64,000 bases of DNA from a virus. Under the pieces are notes generated by a model, which was not told the origin of the DNA, did not search any database, and was given only the letters and a program-made list of their open reading frames with translations. The DNA lies in the IMG/VR virus record IMGVR_UViG_3300046794_000123, positions 1-64,000 of that record. The stretch is one strand, 5' to 3'. How positions within the stretch are numbered: position 1 is the stretch's first letter; each line of letters begins with the position of its first letter. The translations under genes were made by a program, and so were the position numbers. Below, in pieces: positions 11,501 through 48,500 of the stretch.

Positions 11501-13405
11501 CAATGCCAGTGCTTGTTCCTGTGCCGAGTTCTTCGGGTTCTTGGCTTCGTTCGCCAGGTTCTGGAAGAAGTGAATACGGGAGGTCTGTCCGGCCGCTGCA
11601 CGCTGAATCACATCCGGCATGCCCTGCGTCTCGGCGGAATCGAAGTGCACCACACCCTTGGCCGCTTCGACGTAGGAGTGAGCCTCTTCCTTCTGGCTCG
11701 GGGTCAGGTCGGAATTGTTGATCGCATCGGTGGCAGCCTGCGCTGCTGCCGGTGCGTTCTGAACAGCCTCCTGCGCAGCCGTGGAGACGGCCTGGTCCGA
11801 GACAGGAGACTTCGCCTCGTTCTCGGCCATGATCCGGTCACCCCGCTTGCCAGCAAGCTCCACCGCCTTGTTGCCGACGCCTAGTGCTGCACGGGTACCG
11901 GAGCTCAAGATCGAGCCAGGACCAGACACCGCGCCGGCTGAGGCCATGCCATACAGACCGCCGAGACCGGCTTGCTCACCGACACCTTCGAGCAGATCTT
12001 TGTTCTCGTTGCTGGTTTGTTTGGTGGCGACGTTCTGTGCCGCCTGACCGGTACCCGACTGGATCGTCTCTTCGAGACCTTCCTTCAGGATGTTCTGGCC
12101 GAGCTGACGCAGCGTCGGGATCTTGAGCGGTGCCGATTCGAACTTGGCAACCAGACCACCGGTAGCCGTAGCCAGCGGTGCCTGAATGGCAGCCGCCCAC
12201 AGACCCGAGCGATTGGCGACCGTCTGGCGTGCTTCCTCGAAGGACATGCCTTCGCCACCGTCTTCCTTCTTGGCAGCGAGTCGGTTGAAAAGCGGCGAGG
12301 TCTTGGCCAGATCCTCGAAGCTCGTGTTCATCACGTCCGAGGCATTCTGTTGATACGCTCCACCCGCTTCCGTGGCACCAATACCCGCCATCGTCGCACC
12401 TTCGTGTTGAGCGAAGTCCAACACCTTGGAGCCAAGGGGAGAAGCAGCTGCCCGGCCCAGTAGCGCCGAAGCACCGGTAGCGCCTGCATCAGCGGCCATT
12501 GCACCTTCGACCAGTGCACGACGCACGAGCTTGCCACCGGCCACATCGGCTACACCGACAATGCCTCGACCGATCGGACCAGCGGTGAGAAGCGAACCGA
12601 CACCTTGTGCCAGACCATCGGAGGCGACTGTCGGATCCGAGACAGCGTTACCCACGGCGGTAACACCGTCTTTGGCGATGCGTCGCAGACCTGCGACAAA
12701 CGCCCCATCCGTTTCCTTGGTTCGCGCCTCTTCATCTGCGTTGTCCCGGAATCCGAGCTCGTTCCGTGCAGCATTGAGTTGGCGATGAGCATTCATCCCA
12801 TCCGACTGAAGGTTCTGCTGAACCACATCGTTGAGTGCCTTGATGCCTTGTGCAGCGGCAACCCCTGCGCGTTTGTTAACGATGCCCGCACCCAGCGCTG
12901 CCACACCACCAACCGAATTGGCAATACCCAAGCCGACACCGGTAGCGAAGTCGCCGGCCGCCTGCGGAAGCGAGCGAGTCGTATTGATGTCGGTCTGCGT
13001 GGCCCCCTGTGCCTGCAACTGACCATTGAGCATGTCCTGGGCACGGTCGAAACCGTACTTCTTCGCCAGATCATAGGGCGACATGTTGTTCAGATCGGCC
13101 AGCTCCTGGGTCGGCAGCGTCTGATTGCCCACACCTGAGTTACGGGCCAGCGTCGAGCTGTACAGCTGATCCAAGGAAGGCACACCGTTCTGTTGAACGA
13201 CATCTGCCTTCTTTGCATCAGCCGTTTGAGCAAGTGCTGCTTTCTTCGTGTCGGCTGTTGCGGCTACTACGTTCTGTTTGGTTGGGGCGGGTGAGTCTGG
13301 AAGGAAGGGGTTATCGACTACCCCAGTGACCGGCCCTGAACCAGGTACCGTCCCAGTACCGGCTGTACCCAGGTACTGGTCGAACATCTCTTGCGCAGAC
13401 GGCAT
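2555..13405 (-). CDS. Virion-encapsidated RNA polymerase (N4 gp50 vRNAP)
   Basis: 3616 aa; T7-like motifs KVGRL, EADGMTNGP (A), RDLTKNPLTVTMY (B), IFDG (C); HELIH motif; no Cys seen on reading, a vRNAP hallmark. Confidence 0.97.
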   Translation of the reverse strand: MPSAQEMFDQYLGTAGTGTVPGSGPVTGVVDNPFLPDSPAPTKQNVVAATADTKKAALAQTADAKKADVVQQNGVPSLDQLYSSTLARNSGVGNQTLPTQELADLNNMSPYDLAKKYGFDRAQDMLNGQLQAQGATQTDINTTRSLPQAAGDFATGVGLGIANSVGGVAALGAGIVNKRAGVAAAQGIKALNDVVQQNLQSDGMNAHRQLNAARNELGFRDNADEEARTKETDGAFVAGLRRIAKDGVTAVGNAVSDPTVASDGLAQGVGSLLTAGPIGRGIVGVADVAGGKLVRRALVEGAMAADAGATGASALLGRAAASPLGSKVLDFAQHEGATMAGIGATEAGGAYQQNASDVMNTSFEDLAKTSPLFNRLAAKKEDGGEGMSFEEARQTVANRSGLWAAAIQAPLATATGGLVAKFESAPLKIPTLRQLGQNILKEGLEETIQSGTGQAAQNVATKQTSNENKDLLEGVGEQAGLGGLYGMASAGAVSGPGSILSSGTRAALGVGNKAVELAGKRGDRIMAENEAKSPVSDQAVSTAAQEAVQNAPAAAQAATDAINNSDLTPSQKEEAHSYVEAAKGVVHFDSAETQGMPDVIQRAAAGQTSRIHFFQNLANEAKNPKNSAQEQALALATLNDSINNVFGENGLNFAGEDFKSLPDDHAAKQFSSQVGELLTAFQQSPAGKTAANTERAEKVAQRVAKDTLTEQHFDSPEGQQAVQANIAAAQISPQNSNRANNELILNMAAAGKITLDNRQSAALRTANAILDGQKAYIEQLKKTGLKSSADLVSEKVTVNQGSAEGEESALEHTNAIRAAYGRGDTEGAKTALLGFQKFVQSQQNKIRAVNAQIAAHGGNANPGNALHYDAARQDKSGFTKSQNPFGVSVRGKRAASSIGFVQQVAAESHALTGIHNALATAFPELGVKHLAEVSLDPSLADAHPSKVAKEFADGVRGKKEAPASQSSESTVQDEAPKQPVTSEKPAAKDAVKETAKPVESVNKDLPAAAPVEDTPSLEDERDDLINRKIDGPLTPQEEARLSEINRRLNPGQASKEVVQKYAAKRKYRIVGEADQQGGLASTYPTLIHFPTGNMFVNAFKFPSKPITKFSGEENPLEQVQQALHSGSAFTHAAGIDGTNLFTPKVAADYQAFLRYVPKIIAAMNAQIPVFLDKGNNQKDFDEGTKDINRYKNGKLMNLVEEGEDGVLRLNQQLAEGAALAGLQWLLEARQKASHYNNEDVARIFGVPLDTVDENGPLATFLQSGTLRIDAYSDLAQKIQEYWGLTKDADADVAYSQGIPQAMAAEVIKALDTIELKTGENKGQSLTNPETMVVDTSTGQPVPFVRKEGQKLPKGFREVEIFRIQPATVFKGVAAMPDAIERVVMTKPKQIYYMDGAVPVNSDEQMRNPGVKLTDEQQEMVGRESSVPHTLDMETVNLMEALNAGGNLLKIFGPGESDSEKLNKNDAISKKGQALSITSAFDAMRDLVAVTRAQSAATGKPMEEIEHRYGYGVSKVGRLQMLGAFNPQASKLMRHVILPTLSTLNMLRGEHIRAFDLGVAQGIGIKVHNMPYTAARNQMLDALNGKYAPAVDVLRAYLKGGKLGMETADIEKLSASLGSGASFAQLYALKEYARLLNAQEAGEDLSQFKTKLYLEADGMTNGPIMAMAMFARGHTDVQNLENMSRGGLYYGGLPFQNSTIQRTIDPTDLYKATANVVNTRFADKLSDKDMPADMKGQLTHVLRLMNVLLGNKVIEFDGENVTMQRDLTKNPLTVTMYASGAGGIANKLVSMLTDAMYQQMSVAMQNEWGADQIFGPDQAKKNADFNESLRALREFVPEWNKKERKYALTKTKNTLADQALKDYTLGSGDLQAMSSNLKTLFVSDLRSAIKQVVGNDTFVAMDMVKTATQVQSIVQQHMFEAKVKRAVQERIDSKDPTYRTGDFLSQKQLDAIKRSMAGYSPLIKAPGQTFFLSGQNKVGLAGASFASSLSGSHAVPATVNGPGNIGVAGTASLNIGMGDGKMIQTFSNDPDTDPRRLLIFDGIHLALDQIYAGSEQANRAVWNTWMGNPLKAVSQSFDSFMDNIPATEVTKGSDLHRDLVAALFGPFNATDEKIGDFPPEVVMEELQKLQGDLQLSEKQVDARHRAMNRVNVSVDHLASAASPYQITDKEMVVGSPEQVAQRLSEITQEEYAKIRAKEKKDPSNKTESIPTELAKWGEAVEGGARSLTMQSVHRVIENVLKKVPRDQAIVLQSIQKTLAAEGYSLIHGTREQLLDYNASLGANMIDASRLTDENVHGFTMTGRQEIWLVSPSSETLAHELIHAATIRKVQAFYNGEDLGPNSQQVTKAIQNLEVLMQQFLNLGDLDQEEGGLDAMPREMQVAYNHAQSAINAALSDMNLDPATRKAAALNEYMAWGLANTQLTNLQKKVESHWLVQMAKDVVNAIRQIVFGKDKPMAPENDMFSNLLFNTQVVMAAQIDLPQIMSDTTLYQSTQYGTNDHLTELGNSFDETITKWIVQADGDVKEMLRRHFNARYESQDRGARMADNFATVFPMTLQEKTTFHQIVAGLTSEAQFDPTVLARMQQLWSQVNQHLTADMMEDPNEPDANQRRHDAQAKVDAIRGDLFAEEDSKGRSTLLPTFVALAMTNDQFRQVLANLLVEKQGRSKAESRVDRALENLATDVLDSLGRRISGEGKSRDVLAAMDAMGDRFMDIAQERETAMDRYLRDSGGLVDSANDYMVQGMDALSRFLVRKTGEWDQAYDNKLTNAVASSARLFGAIVSEDQAGHVAEGLLAATNKIKAFKPFTDIIHDMIGRVASNAQVYDMIKTVRSMIQKTRQQFREEVPSVIEAQFSRKLEEHEWDLLHKGMGRADLASLSQGMTQDQVLELARSSKARKAKIAELEDQIKALDKPNFDIRQKKMKELARYMMTGETASHLLRNATAITRMVGMPGWEKQKSNPALTKPIDMLTSLYALEELSAKETADLAGLVTSQEKGMKFALSYLQGQRKDEMSRADSSERALLNHFKGYIPQVQQAGASLIVADDSEYANLTNRSYVRIGDYKGSNVEPGKTKKGYYFMPVNGRQAFQQGNLQNVRQTAGGVDVASGYSQMQSAGRITDANAVKRIESMVAIGAEKGNEHLMPVFNHAGEVVAYERALNPQIVNSKLQFNTQLHQMLGVWRGRQVEEELSAVYNNELIDKLADMYDTDLNESKANAERYINVFDQREQAKDPVLKDAVALITPAMKRQIEQKFGKQFWIRRDMLNDVLGYRSASVGDAWTGNSRWSEDTQKHFQRIAMSVFGNKAYRYAVNAERTFQNLVSDMKTMIVVKSVVVPVANLVSNAYQLAGRGVPIKDIITGMPKKTAEVKAYVANELRRIEADAELRAAEGRRDAVAVRKLRTEIQSIEDSHKRLSIWPLIQAGEFSAVSDGKATAEEIELTSGRLHGYIEQLVDKLPPGIKTAGRYALITKDTALFQGMQTAVEYGDFLAKAILYDDLTKRKKQSQEYALARVTEEYVNYDRLPGRFRGYMESMGLMWFYNFKIRSAKVALSMIRNNPVHALLAGLVPAPSFLGSIGTPLTDNLFAKLADGQISYSFGFGQLFHAPTLNPWVNLFSN

Positions 13406-42290: not shown

Positions 42291-42380
42291 ATCAGTAGAA
42301 GACGTTCAACAAGCTATGTCAGCGTTCACCGCTTCACTACACCAGGAATGTTCATGACATAAAAACTGAGGCTATATCCC

Positions 42381-42695
42381 ATGTCCAATCCGGACCCGAA
42401 GGAAGTGCTGCAAGTATTGCGAATGACCGAGGAACAGATGGCGACTGTCTCGACCATCGTTCTGTATCAGGCCTTTTACGCTCTGCCTACCCACTATCCA
42501 CTTGCCCTGTGTGATGTGTCCACTGGCAAGGGGTTCGAGCAATTGAACAAGGAAGAAAGGGTCATCGCTGAACGCATTGTGCGTGTGATTCAACACCGAT
42601 GCCCAGTGCCGAAGATTGAGCGTTGGAAGAAATTCGAAGCACCCGCAGCCAACGATCCGCAGATCCCGATCGAGCTGCGCATCACGCATCACTGA
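42381..42695 (+). CDS. Hypothetical protein
   Basis: GAGG RBS, phage-like codon use. Confidence 0.6.
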   Translation: MSNPDPKEVLQVLRMTEEQMATVSTIVLYQAFYALPTHYPLALCDVSTGKGFEQLNKEERVIAERIVRVIQHRCPVPKIERWKKFEAPAANDPQIPIELRITHH

Positions 42696-42710
42696 GCCAA
42701 GGAAAAGAAT

Positions 42711-43145
42711 ATGAGCCAGGAAAAGAAAGAGTGCGCTGACTGCTGCGGCTGGGCAGAGCCGGGCAATGATCGTTGCGGCTATCACCAGTGCAAGCCAGCA
42801 GCAGCAACTCCTGCGCAGTCTGAACTCCTCACCAAGTTTTACCGTGCGTATGCTGCATGGATTGACGATGGCGCACCTGAAATCCCGGTGTTCACTCGTC
42901 AGCATGGCCTCTGCCACAACCTGAAAACGTGGATTCGAGCAGTCGACGGGGTAGTAATCCCACAGACCTGGTACGAGCTCGATCAGGAAATGCGCAAGCA
43001 GTTCCGGCAAGCACGTCTGCATGAAACCTTCCCGTTCAACGGGGGCGACCGCATGTATTACCAGATCGAGCAGAACACTGTGGCTTCTGGTCCGCAGTGT
43101 CACTCCAACGCAAACCGACTGTCATGGGTACGTGACCATGTTTAA
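42711..43145 (+). CDS. Hypothetical protein
   Basis: RBS motif; FYRAYAAW...GLC...PFN...RLSWVRDH. Confidence 0.65.
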   Translation: MSQEKKECADCCGWAEPGNDRCGYHQCKPAAATPAQSELLTKFYRAYAAWIDDGAPEIPVFTRQHGLCHNLKTWIRAVDGVVIPQTWYELDQEMRKQFRQARLHETFPFNGGDRMYYQIEQNTVASGPQCHSNANRLSWVRDHV

Positions 43146-44433: not shown

Positions 44434-44601
44434 ATGAGCACGAAGAAGTGCTGCCCTCATTGCGGCAGTGAACGCATCCTGCGTGATGCGTGGACCAAGT
44501 GGGACGGCACCGAATGGGTAGTCCATGACGTGCTGGACAACTGCGTCTGCAACGAATGCGGTGCGGACTTCAATGACGACGAGATCGAGGATCAAACGTG
44601 A
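44434..44601 (+). CDS. Zn-ribbon protein (55 aa)
   Basis: CPHC...CNEC; RBS; overlaps RNAP1 start. Confidence 0.6.
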   Translation: MSTKKCCPHCGSERILRDAWTKWDGTEWVVHDVLDNCVCNECGADFNDDEIEDQT

Positions 44602-45407
44602 GTGACTCGAAGATCGAGCATCAGAAAGAACTTGAGCGTCTCTATAACAAGAACCAGCTCATGCCACGCATGCGAGCTGAGTTCAAGGCTGAGCCGGAGA
44701 TCATCGAGCACCTGAAGGCCAATGGCATTCCGGAGGACTTCGGTATCGATCTCCTGGTTCAGATGGCACTGCATAAGCGAGCTGATCTGCAGACCATGAT
44801 CGGCACTCTGCGCCACCACTGTGTGTCGGCCCAGGAATGTGCGGATCTGCTCGTCAAGGCTGCCGAGGCCGATCTGTGCACCTACAACACTGTCCTGCGT
44901 CAGTTCATCGTGATCTTCGAGATCGATGCTCAGACACAGGAAGAGATCGATCGATTCCAGTATCCGCTGCCGATGGTAGTCGAGCCAAGGGAGATCAAGC
45001 ACAACGCCCAGAGCGGTTACCTGCTCAACAACAGCTCCATCATCCTGAAGGATAACCACCATGAGGATGATGTGTGTCTCGACCACATCAATCGGATGAA
45101 CAAGGTCCGATTCAAGTTCAACTTCAACACCGCGAAACTCATCAAGAATGAATGGAGAAACCTCGACAAACCCAAGGAAGGTGAAGAGCGAGGCGAGTAC
45201 GAGCGCCGAGTCCGTGCTTTCGAAAAGTACGACAAGACTGCTCATGCTGTCATCGATCTACTTGTTCGAGAAGGGAACGAGTTCAACTTCACGCATCGAT
45301 ACGATAAGCGTGGTCGCACGTACTGCCAGGGCCATCATGCGAACTACCAGGGCACGGCGTGGAACAAAGCCGTGATCGAGTTCGAACGAGGAGAAGTGAC
45401 GCAATGA
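44598..45407 (+). CDS. RNA polymerase II subunit 1 (N4 gp15-like)
   Basis: 269 aa; FQYPLPMVVEP, YDKRGRTY, QGTAWNKA. Confidence 0.93.
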   Translation: MSDSKIEHQKELERLYNKNQLMPRMRAEFKAEPEIIEHLKANGIPEDFGIDLLVQMALHKRADLQTMIGTLRHHCVSAQECADLLVKAAEADLCTYNTVLRQFIVIFEIDAQTQEEIDRFQYPLPMVVEPREIKHNAQSGYLLNNSSIILKDNHHEDDVCLDHINRMNKVRFKFNFNTAKLIKNEWRNLDKPKEGEERGEYERRVRAFEKYDKTAHAVIDLLVREGNEFNFTHRYDKRGRTYCQGHHANYQGTAWNKAVIEFERGEVTQ

Positions 45408-45625
45408 TCACGCACGAACAGGCGCTGGATGTCTGTGCCCAGAAATATGCTGAGTACAGGGATAAGTGCGACAAAGCGTTCCGTACAGGTGCTGGAGGAC
45501 GCTCAGTCGTCCATGCACAGAATGCCCACGTCATGGCAGAACAATTCCAAAAACTCGCTGGGCTGCGAAACACAGATGAAGCTGTGGCCCAGATCCGTGA
45601 ACGACTCAAGAGGAAGAAACGATGA
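45404..45625 (+). CDS. Hypothetical protein
   Basis: ATGA overlap. Confidence 0.55.
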   Translation: MITHEQALDVCAQKYAEYRDKCDKAFRTGAGGRSVVHAQNAHVMAEQFQKLAGLRNTDEAVAQIRERLKRKKR

Positions 45626-45894
45626 AAACCACCTGGCGTCATCCGGGCTACGATGCCCTCAATGAGAAGAGCAAGCCTGTCGTCGTGAAGACGTATTCGA
45701 GACCTGGAGTGAGTCCCGATCCGCAGGTCTCGGTAGGCTGCACCATGCGCAACTTCACCACGCTGGAGCTGCTCGACGATGGCACGCTGCAAGTGCGAGA
45801 TCGTGATCTCGACAAGGCAGTCAACCTAGGCCGAGCCAAGGAAGCAATGGAGGCCATGGCCTACTCCATGAACATGCTGAAGATCCACTTCTAA
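45622..45894 (+). CDS. Hypothetical protein
   Basis: ATGA overlap, RBS. Confidence 0.55.
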   Translation: MKTTWRHPGYDALNEKSKPVVVKTYSRPGVSPDPQVSVGCTMRNFTTLELLDDGTLQVRDRDLDKAVNLGRAKEAMEAMAYSMNMLKIHF

Positions 45895-46014
45895 CCAAGG
45901 AACGAGGGAGACAAGGAAAAGTCCTTCCTTGGTTCCCTCCCTCCTTCATTCGCGGGAGGCTTGCATCCCTCCAAGAATGGTTTACCGTATACGGTTGAAC
46001 CAACCTTCTTGGAG
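45893..46014 (+). promoter_or_regulatory. Putative centromere/operator and sigma70 promoter of the par operon
   Basis: Inverted array of 4-bp boxes (AACC AAGG AACG AGGG AGAC AAGG / CCTT CCTT GGTT CCCT CCCT CCTT); TTGCAT-16-TACCGT; IR CTCCAAGAA...TTCTTGGAG around palindrome ACCGTATACGGT. Confidence 0.6.
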
Positions 46015-46019
46015 TTCAG

Positions 46020-46664
46020 ATGAGAACAATCGTCTTCTCCTGCCTGAAAGGCGGGAGTGGCAAAACCACGCATTCAGCCCACTTCGCAGTGGCGCTGGAA
46101 GCCATGGGCAAAGGTCCAGTAGTCACTATGGACCTCGATCCGCAAGGATCTCTCTCAGCCTGGTGGAATGACCGCAAGGCTGAGACACCCCAGTTCGCCA
46201 TGGTCGAGAACGTAGCGCACCTGGCCAAGAAGCATGTCGAGCTCACCAATGCCGGCTACCAGTGGTGCGTGATCGATACGCCACCGCAGGACCACGAGAT
46301 CAACCGCACAGCCATTCGTCTGGCTGATCTGGTGGTTATTCCGGCCAAGCATTCTCCGCATGACATCCGGGCTGCCGAGAGCACGGTGGATCTATGCGAG
46401 CAAGAGAAGAAGAAGTTCTTCTTCCTGCTCAATGAGACCAACGGCAAGTCGGTCTCGCTGGCTGCTACCCGTAAGCTTGCCTCGATGGGGCCGGTGATTC
46501 CACACGCCATCCCCAAGCTCAATGGCTACTGGGAGTCGATGATCGACGGCCGTACCTTTCAGGAAGTAAACAAGGGGACCGGTGCAATCATCATTGATGA
46601 CGTAGCCAGCTTCCTTATCAGCCAGTTCGAGAAGCAGCCGAAGAAGGAGAAGGCTCATGTCTAA
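46020..46664 (+). CDS. parA: Type Ib ParA partition ATPase
   Basis: Deviant Walker A KGGSGKTT, DLDPQGS, VIDTPP; 214 aa with no N-terminal HTH. Confidence 0.95.
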   Translation: MRTIVFSCLKGGSGKTTHSAHFAVALEAMGKGPVVTMDLDPQGSLSAWWNDRKAETPQFAMVENVAHLAKKHVELTNAGYQWCVIDTPPQDHEINRTAIRLADLVVIPAKHSPHDIRAAESTVDLCEQEKKKFFFLLNETNGKSVSLAATRKLASMGPVIPHAIPKLNGYWESMIDGRTFQEVNKGTGAIIIDDVASFLISQFEKQPKKEKAHV

Positions 46665-47010
46665 GCCATCACTCGACTCACTCGTCACCCGTAAGGGCAG
46701 TGCTGCGCCTGCCGCCTTGGAACCGCCTGCAATCGAGCAAGCAAGCAAGGAGCCAAGGAAGGAAGTAACCAAGGAGGCATCCAAGGAACCCTCCAACCAA
46801 GGAGCCAGTGAAGGAAGGAGACGTGCTTGGCACCAACCCGGCCAGGAGGAGTGGAAGAAGACGAACTATGAGATGCCGCTGCGTGTGCAGACCAAGCTCA
46901 AGGAGATGAAGAATTGGGGTTACATCCCCAATGTCTACAAGTTCGTGGCTGAGGTGGTCGAGAAAGAGATCGACAAGGTCATTGCCAAGGCCGAGAAGGA
47001 GGGCTACTGA
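46657..47010 (+). CDS. ParG-like ribbon-helix-helix centromere-binding protein
   Basis: Overlaps parA; disordered N-term, then WKKTNYEMP (strand)-LRVQTKLKEMK (helix)-VYKFVAEVVEKEI (helix). Confidence 0.7.
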   Translation: MSKPSLDSLVTRKGSAAPAALEPPAIEQASKEPRKEVTKEASKEPSNQGASEGRRRAWHQPGQEEWKKTNYEMPLRVQTKLKEMKNWGYIPNVYKFVAEVVEKEIDKVIAKAEKEGY

Positions 47011-47011
47011 C

Positions 47012-47650
47012 GTGAGCGTACCCGAGCTATTCGATGACGAGCCAGAGAAGATACAGCAGCTGGAGCTATTCAAGGCTGAGACTCGCTGGTTCCATGTCTT
47101 CAAATCCATGATCGCCAGCGGTGATGTGGCCAAAATGGGGCCGTATGCCTTCACCGTCTATTCGGTGATCAAGGCCCATACCAGCTTCAGCAAGGGCCAC
47201 AGCTTCCCGGAGATCTCCACCATCGTGGAGGAGTCGGGCATCAGCAAGGCACAGGTGCATCGAGCTCTCGATGTACTGGAGGAACTGGGTTACGTGCGCA
47301 GGGGCAAGAAGCCCAGCGGACGAGGGAACCTCTACATCTTCCGTGAGAAGGTGGACATCGAGGACAAGCAGGGCAACCATGTGGCTGATGCCTCATGGGA
47401 TTACCTGCCGCTCGGTGTCAGCTCTGCCATCGCTGAGCTGAAGCATGTCAAAATGACTGGTGACTTTAGCGGAGCCAAGATCGTCCAGATCGAGAACCTG
47501 ACTGTCAACGTGAACACAGCGAACGACAGTTCGATTCAGATCAACATTCAGACGCTTATGGACAACATGGAAATGCTGCCCAAGGAGCTGAAAGAGATAT
47601 TGGTTAGACGATTAGCAGAGATGCAGTTGAAGTCTCCCACTGAGACTTGA
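47012..47650 (+). CDS. Winged-HTH putative plasmid replication initiator (Rep)
   Basis: HTH_36-like SFPEISTIVEESGISKAQVHRALDVLEELGYV; QLELF clamp motif; directly followed by iterons and DnaA box. Confidence 0.7.
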   Translation: MSVPELFDDEPEKIQQLELFKAETRWFHVFKSMIASGDVAKMGPYAFTVYSVIKAHTSFSKGHSFPEISTIVEESGISKAQVHRALDVLEELGYVRRGKKPSGRGNLYIFREKVDIEDKQGNHVADASWDYLPLGVSSAIAELKHVKMTGDFSGAKIVQIENLTVNVNTANDSSIQINIQTLMDNMEMLPKELKEILVRRLAEMQLKSPTET

Positions 47651-47835
47651 AACGTAGGTCTCACACTGAGACGTATCCAAGAGAGACTGAACAACTCCCT
47701 TCAAGTCTCAGGCTGAGACTCGAAACCGGGGTTCAGGTCTCACACAGAGTCACTAATAAGATAAGACTTGTTTACTAAGTAAACCCAGAGCATCGAAGAC
47801 TTATCCACACTTTCAGTGGCTAACCCTGTGAACAA
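47632..47835. repeat. Putative plasmid replication origin (iterons, AT-rich IR, DnaA boxes)
   Basis: GTCTC-N5-GAGAC at 47632, 47658, 47705 with degenerate copies at 47673 and 47737; GTTTACT-A-AGTAAAC 47770-84; TTATCCACA 47801-09; inverted near-box at 47827-35. Confidence 0.78.
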
Positions 47836-47837
47836 CT

Positions 47838-48050
47838 ATGAGCGACGCACAAGAACCGAAGAACCTCGTCCTGGTCAAGCTGGATCAGGTACTGACCAGG
47901 CTCGACAACCTGCATGACGACATGCGGCAGATCAAGGCACGCATGACAGCACTGGAAAAGCAGATGCAGACAACCAGTGAATCCGTGGTCGCCCAGTGGG
48001 ACACCTTTGATAAGCACGAAGACCGGATCCGCACGCTGGAAAACCAATGA
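47838..48050 (+). CDS. Small coiled-coil protein
   Basis: Heptads LDQVLTRLDNLHDDMRQIKARMTALE. Confidence 0.6.
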   Translation: MSDAQEPKNLVLVKLDQVLTRLDNLHDDMRQIKARMTALEKQMQTTSESVVAQWDTFDKHEDRIRTLENQ

Positions 48051-48056
48051 CCGACC

Positions 48057-48284
48057 ATGGCCATCGAAAACATCCCACGATTCGAGTCAGAAGAGCAGGA
48101 GCTGCGCTGGATCCTCAACGAGCTGCACAAGGAGTACCAGCGCAAGATTCAGCCCATTGTCAAACGGCTGAGCAAGATTGACGCAGCCAGGCCGCTGCCA
48201 CCGCTCATCGTGAGCGACTACGACAAATACAACCAGCAGGCGCTACAGCAGCTGCTGGACAAGTTCAGACAAGGCCGAACATGA
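48057..48284 (+). CDS. Hypothetical protein
   Basis: 75 aa ORF in operon. Confidence 0.55.
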   Translation: MAIENIPRFESEEQELRWILNELHKEYQRKIQPIVKRLSKIDAARPLPPLIVSDYDKYNQQALQQLLDKFRQGRT

Positions 48285-48478
48285 ACCAGGAAAAAGAAAT
48301 GACGCACAAACCCATGAATGCCTGGAAGGTGTATCAGCCTTCCGGCACCACCGACCCGGATGCCCATCTCGACACGGTGTTCTTCATCCCGAGCATGGAA
48401 GCGGACGACATCAAGAAAGCCCTGATTGAGCATGACGGCTTTCCATCCAACATCTACATTGAGTTGGATAAGCGATAA
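48281..48478 (+). CDS. Hypothetical protein
   Basis: LDTVFF...IKKALIEHDGF motif. Confidence 0.6.
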   Translation: MNQEKEMTHKPMNAWKVYQPSGTTDPDAHLDTVFFIPSMEADDIKKALIEHDGFPSNIYIELDKR

Positions 48479-48500
48479 GCGCAGTACCGCATCAAACCTC

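Follow-up and report, generated by a model that had tools for sequence, protein, structure and literature searches.

What is the role of the winged helix-turn-helix (wHTH) gene at 47012–47650 in the first 64 kb (hereafter the window) of the 78,537-bp virus record IMG/VR IMGVR_UViG_3300046794_000123? The phage that this record represents is, by its gene content, N4-like with a Schitoviridae backbone, and the gene is the last of a three-gene operon (ParA, a 117-aa protein and the wHTH open reading frame, ORF) located between the two genes for RNA polymerase (RNAP) II subunits. A preliminary description of this DNA had suggested a Rep-like initiator whose repeats begin in the last codons of the gene, and our analysis leads to the same reading: the gene probably encodes a plasmid-type replication initiator (Rep), with the DNA at and past its 3′ end acting as its origin. 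We put the probability of this at roughly 0.75. The reading is well supported, for the most part by comparison with relatives, and four lines of evidence agree with it, namely the anatomy of the candidate origin, the enrichment of DnaA boxes beside the gene across its family, the existence of minimal circular replicons carrying it and the presence of the same cassette on a plasmid. The gene and the elements of the candidate origin are as follows.

47012–47650, + strand: wHTH gene, proposed replication initiator, 212 aa (ORF, Pfam, PHROG and AlphaFold2 (AF2) evidence)
47556–47564, + strand: one-mismatch DnaA-like box TTATGGACA, inside the wHTH gene
47632–47646, no strand: palindromic site 1, GTCTCCCACTGAGAC, within the last codons of the wHTH gene
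47658–47672, no strand: palindromic site 2, GTCTCACACTGAGAC
47673–47687, no strand: palindromic site 3, GTATCCAAGAGAGAC, one mismatch
47705–47719, no strand: palindromic site 4, GTCTCAGGCTGAGAC
47737–47751, no strand: palindromic site 5, GTCTCACACAGAGTC, one mismatch
47744–47783, no strand: AT-rich tract, candidate DNA-unwinding element, containing the palindrome GTTTACTAAGTAAAC
47801–47809, + strand: perfect DnaA box, TTATCCACA
47827–47835, − strand: one-mismatch DnaA-like box TTGTTCACA, inverted

The repeats are 15-bp palindromes of the form GTCTC-N5-GAGAC (5-nt arms and a 5-nt spacer), present in five copies within 120 bp (47632–47751). Perfect matches to this form number three in the whole window, all of them in this array, and sites 3, 4 and 5 follow one another at a spacing of 32 bp. 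The preliminary description had placed a first iteron in the last codons of the gene; the overlap was borne out by site 1, and the repeat type was not, as the repeats do not have the head-to-tail arrangement of direct iterons and the term fits only loosely because they are palindromic. The tract at 47744–47783 is 72.5 % AT, compared with a genome mean of 43 %, and shares second place for AT content among the 40-mers of the 78.5-kb genome. The box TTATCCACA is the sole perfect DnaA box of that genome and lies 50 bp beyond the array. With the one-mismatch boxes starting at 47556 and 47827, 3 of the 14 such sites in the window fall within 280 bp, the total for the window being below chance. The locus thus has the parts expected of an iteron-type theta replicon, namely a repeat array adjoining the rep gene, an AT-rich element and a DnaA box.

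The wHTH family comprises 526 representative clusters at E≤1e-3 (259 at E≤1e-10), most of them from Pseudomonadota and the phages of this phylum. To examine the arrangement across the family, we took 90 loci, from viral contigs as well as genomes, and dereplicated them at 80 % identity, which left 46 clusters. In 29 of these 46, an exact TTATNCACA was present within −100 to +300 of the stop codon; its density there was 2.34 per kb, compared with 0.021 per kb over the remainder of the loci, an enrichment of approximately 113-fold (Poisson P ~1e-71). Half of the clusters (23/46) have three or more palindromic sites that begin near the stop codon. The arms of these palindromes vary by cluster (GTCTC, GTGAC, CGGTC, GTGTC, GTGCA, TGCTC and others), and array spacings of 32–33 bp recur across clusters. 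This is the expected appearance of an initiator and its origin, because a constant host-factor box adjoins lineage-specific sites.

Several records place the gene on elements that must replicate autonomously. Exact end overlaps, as seen in circular assemblies, were present on four whole-contig loci. One of the circular elements, of ~2.9 kb (L037), contains a Mob_Pre relaxase ORF and the family gene and nothing else of size, with three palindromic repeats of ~26 bp spanning the stop codon and an AT-rich tract beyond them; another, of ~3.9 kb (L008), contains the family gene and a recombinase. A tblastn search with the wHTH protein against 72,556 plasmids matched two records, neither of which is shown with a replicon type in PLSDB. 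The complete 104-kb Polaromonas plasmid pA29BJ2 has the same cassette of ParA, a 110-aa protein and wHTH, followed on its 3′ side by three CCCTTA-N4-TAAGGG palindromes (spacings of 33 and 32 bp), three DnaA boxes and an AT-rich tract. The genes listed for pA29BJ2, in a table that is incomplete, include no second replication initiator.

Further members of the family lie in chromosomes. Tyrosine integrases accompany the gene in Burkholderia and Pseudomonas islands. In two Methylotenera/Methylophilaceae chromosomes (L040 and L043) it lies between ParB/KorB and a type IV secretion ATPase of the VirB4/TrbE type, with two DnaA boxes 3′ of it, and there it probably serves an integrative conjugative element as its replication module. 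The presence of the family in integrase-borne islands and in regions resembling such elements suggests replication of these elements after excision.

The protein itself was examined by profile, structure prediction and fold comparison, with the following additional features.

46996–47002, + strand: strong Shine-Dalgarno sequence AAGGAGG, 9 nt 5′ of the GTG start, read from the sequence
47135–47296, + strand: HTH_36 winged-helix core, residues 42–95, from Pfam and the AF2 helices

The gene runs from a GTG start at 47012 to a TGA stop at 47648–47650, and an identical 212-aa protein with the same GTG start is present in the protein collection (P0004). The HTH_36-like winged helix noted in the preliminary description was recovered as a PF13730 match above the cut-off (E=2.4e-9, 37.3 bits against a cut-off of 25). 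The AF2 model, built with 135 sequences, has a mean predicted local distance difference test (pLDDT) score of 89 and predicts one winged helix (helices 44–55, 68–75 and 79–92), a long beta-hairpin at 95–130 and helices at 133–149 and 191–206. In the Pfam scan, DnaD_N matched weakly (E=0.03, 15 bits against a cut-off of 27) and neither TrfA nor Phage_rep_O matched; the Rep_3 hidden Markov model gave no match at E≤0.1, and no RepE or pi chains were among the fold matches listed. The best PHROG match was 28562, of ‘unknown function’, followed by replication initiation, O-like and DnaD-like families at E values of 1e-8 to 1e-5; these include PHROG 186 (DnaD-like helicase loader, E 1.7e-5) and ‘replication initiation O-like’ families that match the helix-turn-helix region (E ~1e-5).

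An NCBIfam search with the protein gave nothing specific. The Foldseek comparison proposed in the preliminary description, run against the PDB, returned generic wHTH regulators alone, none at E≤1e-3. The longest VIA-align match was to the N-terminal domain of staphylococcal RepA (4pta; Z 9.1, rmsd 4.4, 100 residues), and the N-terminal domains of DnaD gave Z scores of 8.1 (8ojj) and 7.7 (2vn2) over 97–103 residues. A PDB sequence-profile search with the family returned generic wHTH matches, with weak matches to AspA (E ~2e-3) and TubR (E ~7e-3). Taken together, the modelled fold leans weakly toward replication proteins. The family is without a specific name in Pfam, PHROG and NCBIfam, the two plasmid records are shown without a replicon type in PLSDB, and the earlier suggestion of an untyped Rep family is well supported.

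The right arm of site 1 supplies the codons for the C-terminal Thr-Glu-Thr of the protein, and the codons GCT GAG ACT (47073–47083), for a conserved Ala-Glu-Thr near its N-terminus, contain the palindrome arm GAGAC. Because these two sets of codons form half-sites, conserved residues of the wHTH protein share sequence with its own proposed sites.

Several observations weigh against an initiator. The palindromes are equally expected as the operators of a dimeric repressor, and they lie immediately 5′ of the genes that lead up to RNAP II subunit 2. No exact DnaA box was found near the gene in 17 of the 46 clusters, nor in its phage homologue in Acinetobacter phage vB_IME_Ab2712. The fold-search Z scores, at only ~8–9, are level with those of generic winged-helix regulators. 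At the level of the phage, the record is metagenomic and comes without host data, a sigma-70 promoter scan of 45300–48600 found none for the cassette, and no lysogeny repressor was recognized among the early ORFs at 39.3–44.2 kb.

The explanation that best survives beside an initiator, although we consider it unlikely, is that the wHTH protein is solely a MarR-like dimeric repressor, one that autoregulates the par operon, blocks read-through or initiation into 47838–48478 and RNAP II subunit 2 and so acts as a brake on the lytic cycle. Half-sites one helical turn apart are typical of wHTH repressor operators, the sites lie between the cassette and the genes leading to subunit 2, and the Foldseek, PDB and NCBIfam matches are mostly MarR, ArsR, Fur and IclR regulators. 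Relatives are also annotated at source as MarR, ArsR or MocR regulators. A repressor does not explain, however, why DnaA boxes are enriched 113-fold beside the gene, why an AT-rich tract is present or why the ~2.9-kb circular contig carries a relaxase and this gene alone. Iteron-type Reps commonly autoregulate, and operator-like behaviour is therefore compatible with initiation.

The two genes preceding the wHTH gene bear on a second explanation, in which it would belong to the partition system.

46020–46664, + strand: ParA-type partition ATPase, 214 aa, first in the operon (Pfam, NCBIfam and PHROG)
46657–47010, + strand: 117-aa partner, ParG-like candidate, its start overlapping the parA stop

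The ATPase matched AAA_31, MipZ, VirC1 and CbiA in Pfam, ParA_partition in NCBIfam (E=4.5e-37; 127.6 bits, under the 180-bit equivalog cut-off) and PHROG 164, ParA-like (E=4e-33). Searches of Pfam, PHROG, NCBIfam and PDB sequences returned no match to the 117-aa partner. It consists of a conserved N-terminal peptide, a disordered linker rich in Lys and Glu and 50 conserved C-terminal residues. In its AF2 model residues 1–60 are disordered, ~68–74 extended and 75–87 and 93–114 helical (pLDDT ~90), and the best-superposing Foldseek rows were ribbon-helix-helix (RHH) proteins (ParD and NikR), none of them significant. Upstream of parA, the interval 45893–46019 contains the inverted repeats ACCAAGGAA / TTCCTTGGT and GGGAG / CTCCC, and might serve the ParG-like protein as centromere or operator, or else be the terminator of the preceding gene.

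Under this second explanation the wHTH protein would be the centromere binder of a three-part partition system in the style of pNOB8 AspA-ParB-ParA or of TubR, and the array its centromere. The occurrence of ParA, a small protein, the wHTH gene and a repeat array in one operon, and the fact that the cassette stays together both in phages and on a plasmid, are consistent with such a system; the weak profile matches to AspA and TubR were judged insufficient. We regard it as very unlikely. ParA is near the gene in only 23 of the 77 gene-called loci, with tyrosine integrases or tiny circular contigs as the setting elsewhere, and DnaA boxes with an AT-rich tract are features of an origin rather than a centromere. 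Furthermore, because the partner has an RHH-like domain and a ParG-like disordered tail, both predicted, it would already form a complete type Ib pair with ParA, leaving the wHTH protein for another job. The least probable explanation, that host DnaA is the true initiator and the wHTH protein a DnaD-like origin remodeller or helicase-loading adaptor, needed but not opening the origin, draws on the structural likeness to DnaD N-terminal domains over ~100 residues, the weak DnaD_N and PHROG 186 matches, the occurrence of DnaD_N in a share of look-alike Atlas clusters and the conservation of DnaA boxes beside the gene, and differs from an initiator in degree, but it accounts poorly for the clusters lacking an exact DnaA box, which have palindrome arrays or nothing recognizable, and for site arms that co-vary with the protein lineage beside a constant DnaA box, as fits an initiator that gives specificity.

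If the wHTH protein is an initiator, a further question is whether it recruits the host sliding clamp. The relevant feature is near the N-terminus, where the preliminary description had pointed out QQLELF, found here at residues 15–20.

47054–47071, + strand: codons of QQLELF, residues 15–20, candidate beta-clamp-binding motif (positional conservation in the family)

Within it, QLELF at residues 16–20 follows a QL[SD]LF-like pattern (Q, then L or M and F at positions 4 and 5). The parallel drawn earlier with RK2 TrfA is supported by the literature, in which an N-terminal clamp-binding motif of the QL[SD]LF type is used by TrfA in replisome assembly (PMC4980987). Among 135 diverse relatives, Q..[LM]F occurs at one aligned position in 44, usually 1–8 residues from the N-terminus, and the pattern was seen once elsewhere in those proteins (24,370 residues). 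Counting back from the nearly invariant Trp26, position −10 is Q in 54 of the relatives, −8 is acidic in 66 and −7 is L in 49; variants such as QLKLPL and QG[DE]LW also occur. This conservation of Q-x-[DE]-L-F fits a clamp-binding motif.

Three observations count against clamp binding. Position −6 is hydrophobic (F, L, Y or W) in 110 of the 135 relatives (F in 55, L in 40), and for this reason the last motif position may belong to the fold. The motif is absent from approximately two thirds of the family, from Ab2712 and from pA29BJ2, which has QGDLW. Finally, the N-terminal 20 residues of the AF2 model have a pLDDT of 83, where low confidence would be expected of a free tail; residues 1–30 are without secondary structure and range from 83 to 93. 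From these sequence patterns, binding of the wHTH protein to the beta clamp (DnaN) is a tentative proposal that we would rate at somewhat under even odds.

An initiator at this locus could act as follows. Dimers of the wHTH protein would bind the five GTCTC-N5-GAGAC palindromes and would lie on one face of the DNA, because the half-sites are one helical turn apart and the sites are phased at ~32 bp. The resulting nucleoprotein complex, with host DnaA at the adjacent box or boxes, would open the AT-rich tract between them, and the host helicase and Pol III replisome would be loaded next. The N-terminal QLELF may assist through beta-clamp binding, in the manner of RK2 TrfA. With ParA and the RHH-like partner, the wHTH gene and its origin would constitute a cassette for both replication and partition, inserted between the RNAP II subunit genes, by means of which the phage genome could persist as a low-copy plasmid. 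For the phage of the window we infer DNA binding, origin firing, clamp recruitment and a plasmid state, and replication from this origin might conceivably be independent of the phage’s own DNA polymerase.

Among phages, the cassette is seldom seen in cultured isolates, yet it recurs in several lineages. The genome of the window is a phage genome with plasmid replication and partition genes, which is the gene content that marks a phage-plasmid. Among 50,697 phage records there was one other clear homologue of the wHTH protein, in the Schitoviridae phage Ab2712 (38 % identity), where the order of ParA, small ORF and wHTH is retained and the palindromes overlap the stop codon. The Ab2712 cassette is 99.5 % identical to that of the circular pRBH2-3 of the complete Acinetobacter baumannii RBH2 genome, and in two IMG/VR records (L061 and L062) the cassette occupies the same slot between the RNAP1 and RNAP2 genes.

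The pRBH2-3 record (L093; NZ_CP110465.1, 75,126 bp) was deposited as a plasmid and encodes an N4-type RNAP, a DNA polymerase and an amidase; judged by these genes, it is an N4-like phage genome. In three further IMG/VR records rated as 100 % complete (L066, L069 and L057, of 42.6, 44.1 and 46.9 kb), the cassette, with DnaA boxes 3′ of it, occurs together with a full-length T7-type single-subunit RNAP in open frames of 765–846 aa, and therefore T7-like phages too carry the plasmid module. A circular element of ~8.4 kb from Nitrosospira multiformis Nl18 (L017; 8457 bp with a 95-nt end overlap) encodes an HK97-type capsid, a prohead protease, wHTH, ParA and a Dam-type methyltransferase, and from this gene content looks like a plasmid-borne, capsid-forming phage satellite.

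A broader possibility, which we hold tentatively and think somewhat less probable than its negation, is that the portable cassette of ParA, ParG-like protein, wHTH and origin makes plasmid prophages or stable carrier-state episomes of supposedly virulent N4-like and T7-like phages, with Q-x-[DE]-L-F bringing the host clamp to the origin as in TrfA. In the literature we found no description of an N4-like or Schitoviridae phage-plasmid or of a temperate or persistent state in these phages, and nothing on pRBH2-3 or pA29BJ2.

The surroundings of the cassette are those of an N4-like genome, with the following genes in the window.

2555–13405, − strand: 3616-aa ORF, presumed by size and location to be the virion RNAP
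44598–45404 and ~48549–49742: RNAP II subunit genes, the start of subunit 2 being approximate

The RNAP II subunits have 54–61 % identity to those of Pseudomonas phage Holyagarpour, with matches across many Schitoviridae, and the DNA polymerase A gene of the phage is located at 70.6–71.8 kb. In related cultured phages, one to three small ORFs lie between the RNAP II subunit genes. No compositional break was found in GC content across the cassette. The single terminator-like site on the + strand of 45300–48600 is at 48501–48522, before RNAP2; this strong hairpin (9-bp stem and T-run) is just 5′ of the likely start of subunit 2 and would part the cassette and three small ORFs from RNAP2.

Among the early ORFs, a 243-aa minus-strand frame at 42372–43103 was considered as a repressor and rejected, as it overlaps likelier plus-strand ORFs and has no family match. 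At the genome ends, the first 30 nt occur again at 77498 and the last 30 nt again at 1007, a sign that the two ends form a direct repeat of ~1.04 kb differing by a small indel (window 1–1039, genome 77498–78537). The IMG/VR class of the record is linear without end repeats, despite this apparent repeat.

These readings would have practical consequences. N4-like phages, regarded as obligately lytic, serve in phage therapy or have been put forward for it; given a working replicon and partition system, some of them could persist in host lineages. Such persistence would bear on the safety of therapy, on the annotation of ‘plasmids’ in finished genomes such as pRBH2-3 and on phage ecology. If the wHTH gene encodes a Rep, a function would be provided for a widespread family labelled ‘helix-turn-helix domain-containing protein’ or mislabelled as MarR or ArsR, and an untyped replicon would be added to plasmid typing schemes. 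Binding of the N-terminal motif to DnaN would be a second, independent case of clamp recruitment directed by an initiator, after TrfA.

Among known systems, the TrfA-oriV replicon of RK2/RP4 (IncP-1) is similar in its array of repeated sites by an AT-rich region and DnaA boxes, in the N-terminal motif of the QL[SD]LF type and in having a partition system on the same element. There is no sequence relationship between the two initiators: TrfA is built differently, and its monomers bind 17-bp iterons in direct orientation, whereas the wHTH protein has a single winged helix with a long beta-hairpin, and its sites are palindromic. Lambda O has an N-terminal winged helix, and its dimers occupy four palindromic repeats that lie within or beside the O gene, next to an AT-rich region; lambda ori is without DnaA boxes, and O recruits P-DnaB through its C-terminal domain. 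O-like PHROG families match the helix-turn-helix region of the wHTH protein, but its C-terminal half is unrelated and its context, with ParA and a ParG-like partner, is plasmid-like.

The longest structural matches were to the N-terminal domains of RepA_N proteins (pSK41 RepA, 4pta) and DnaD, which are initiation proteins with an extended winged helix; these are from Bacillota, whereas the wHTH family is mainly from Pseudomonadota. Reps with an HTH_36 domain are a described class of small theta plasmids (pKL1, pAES1 and pMOS2), with oriV repeats or inverted repeats nearby (PMC3832669, PMC4224046). The Pfam domain is common to both, but no close similarity was detectable, neither of the two plasmids matched by tblastn is among them, and the available portions of those accounts do not describe a palindrome array at the gene end with DnaA boxes or a Q-x-[DE]-L-F N-terminus. 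Phage-plasmids of the P1, N15 and SSU5 types differ in that the phage of the window is N4-like, a group treated as strictly lytic, and in the lack of a recognized lysogeny repressor among its early ORFs. They resemble it in combining a tailed-phage genome with plasmid replication and ParA-type partition modules, and a finished bacterial genome includes a related phage as a circular record apart from the chromosome.

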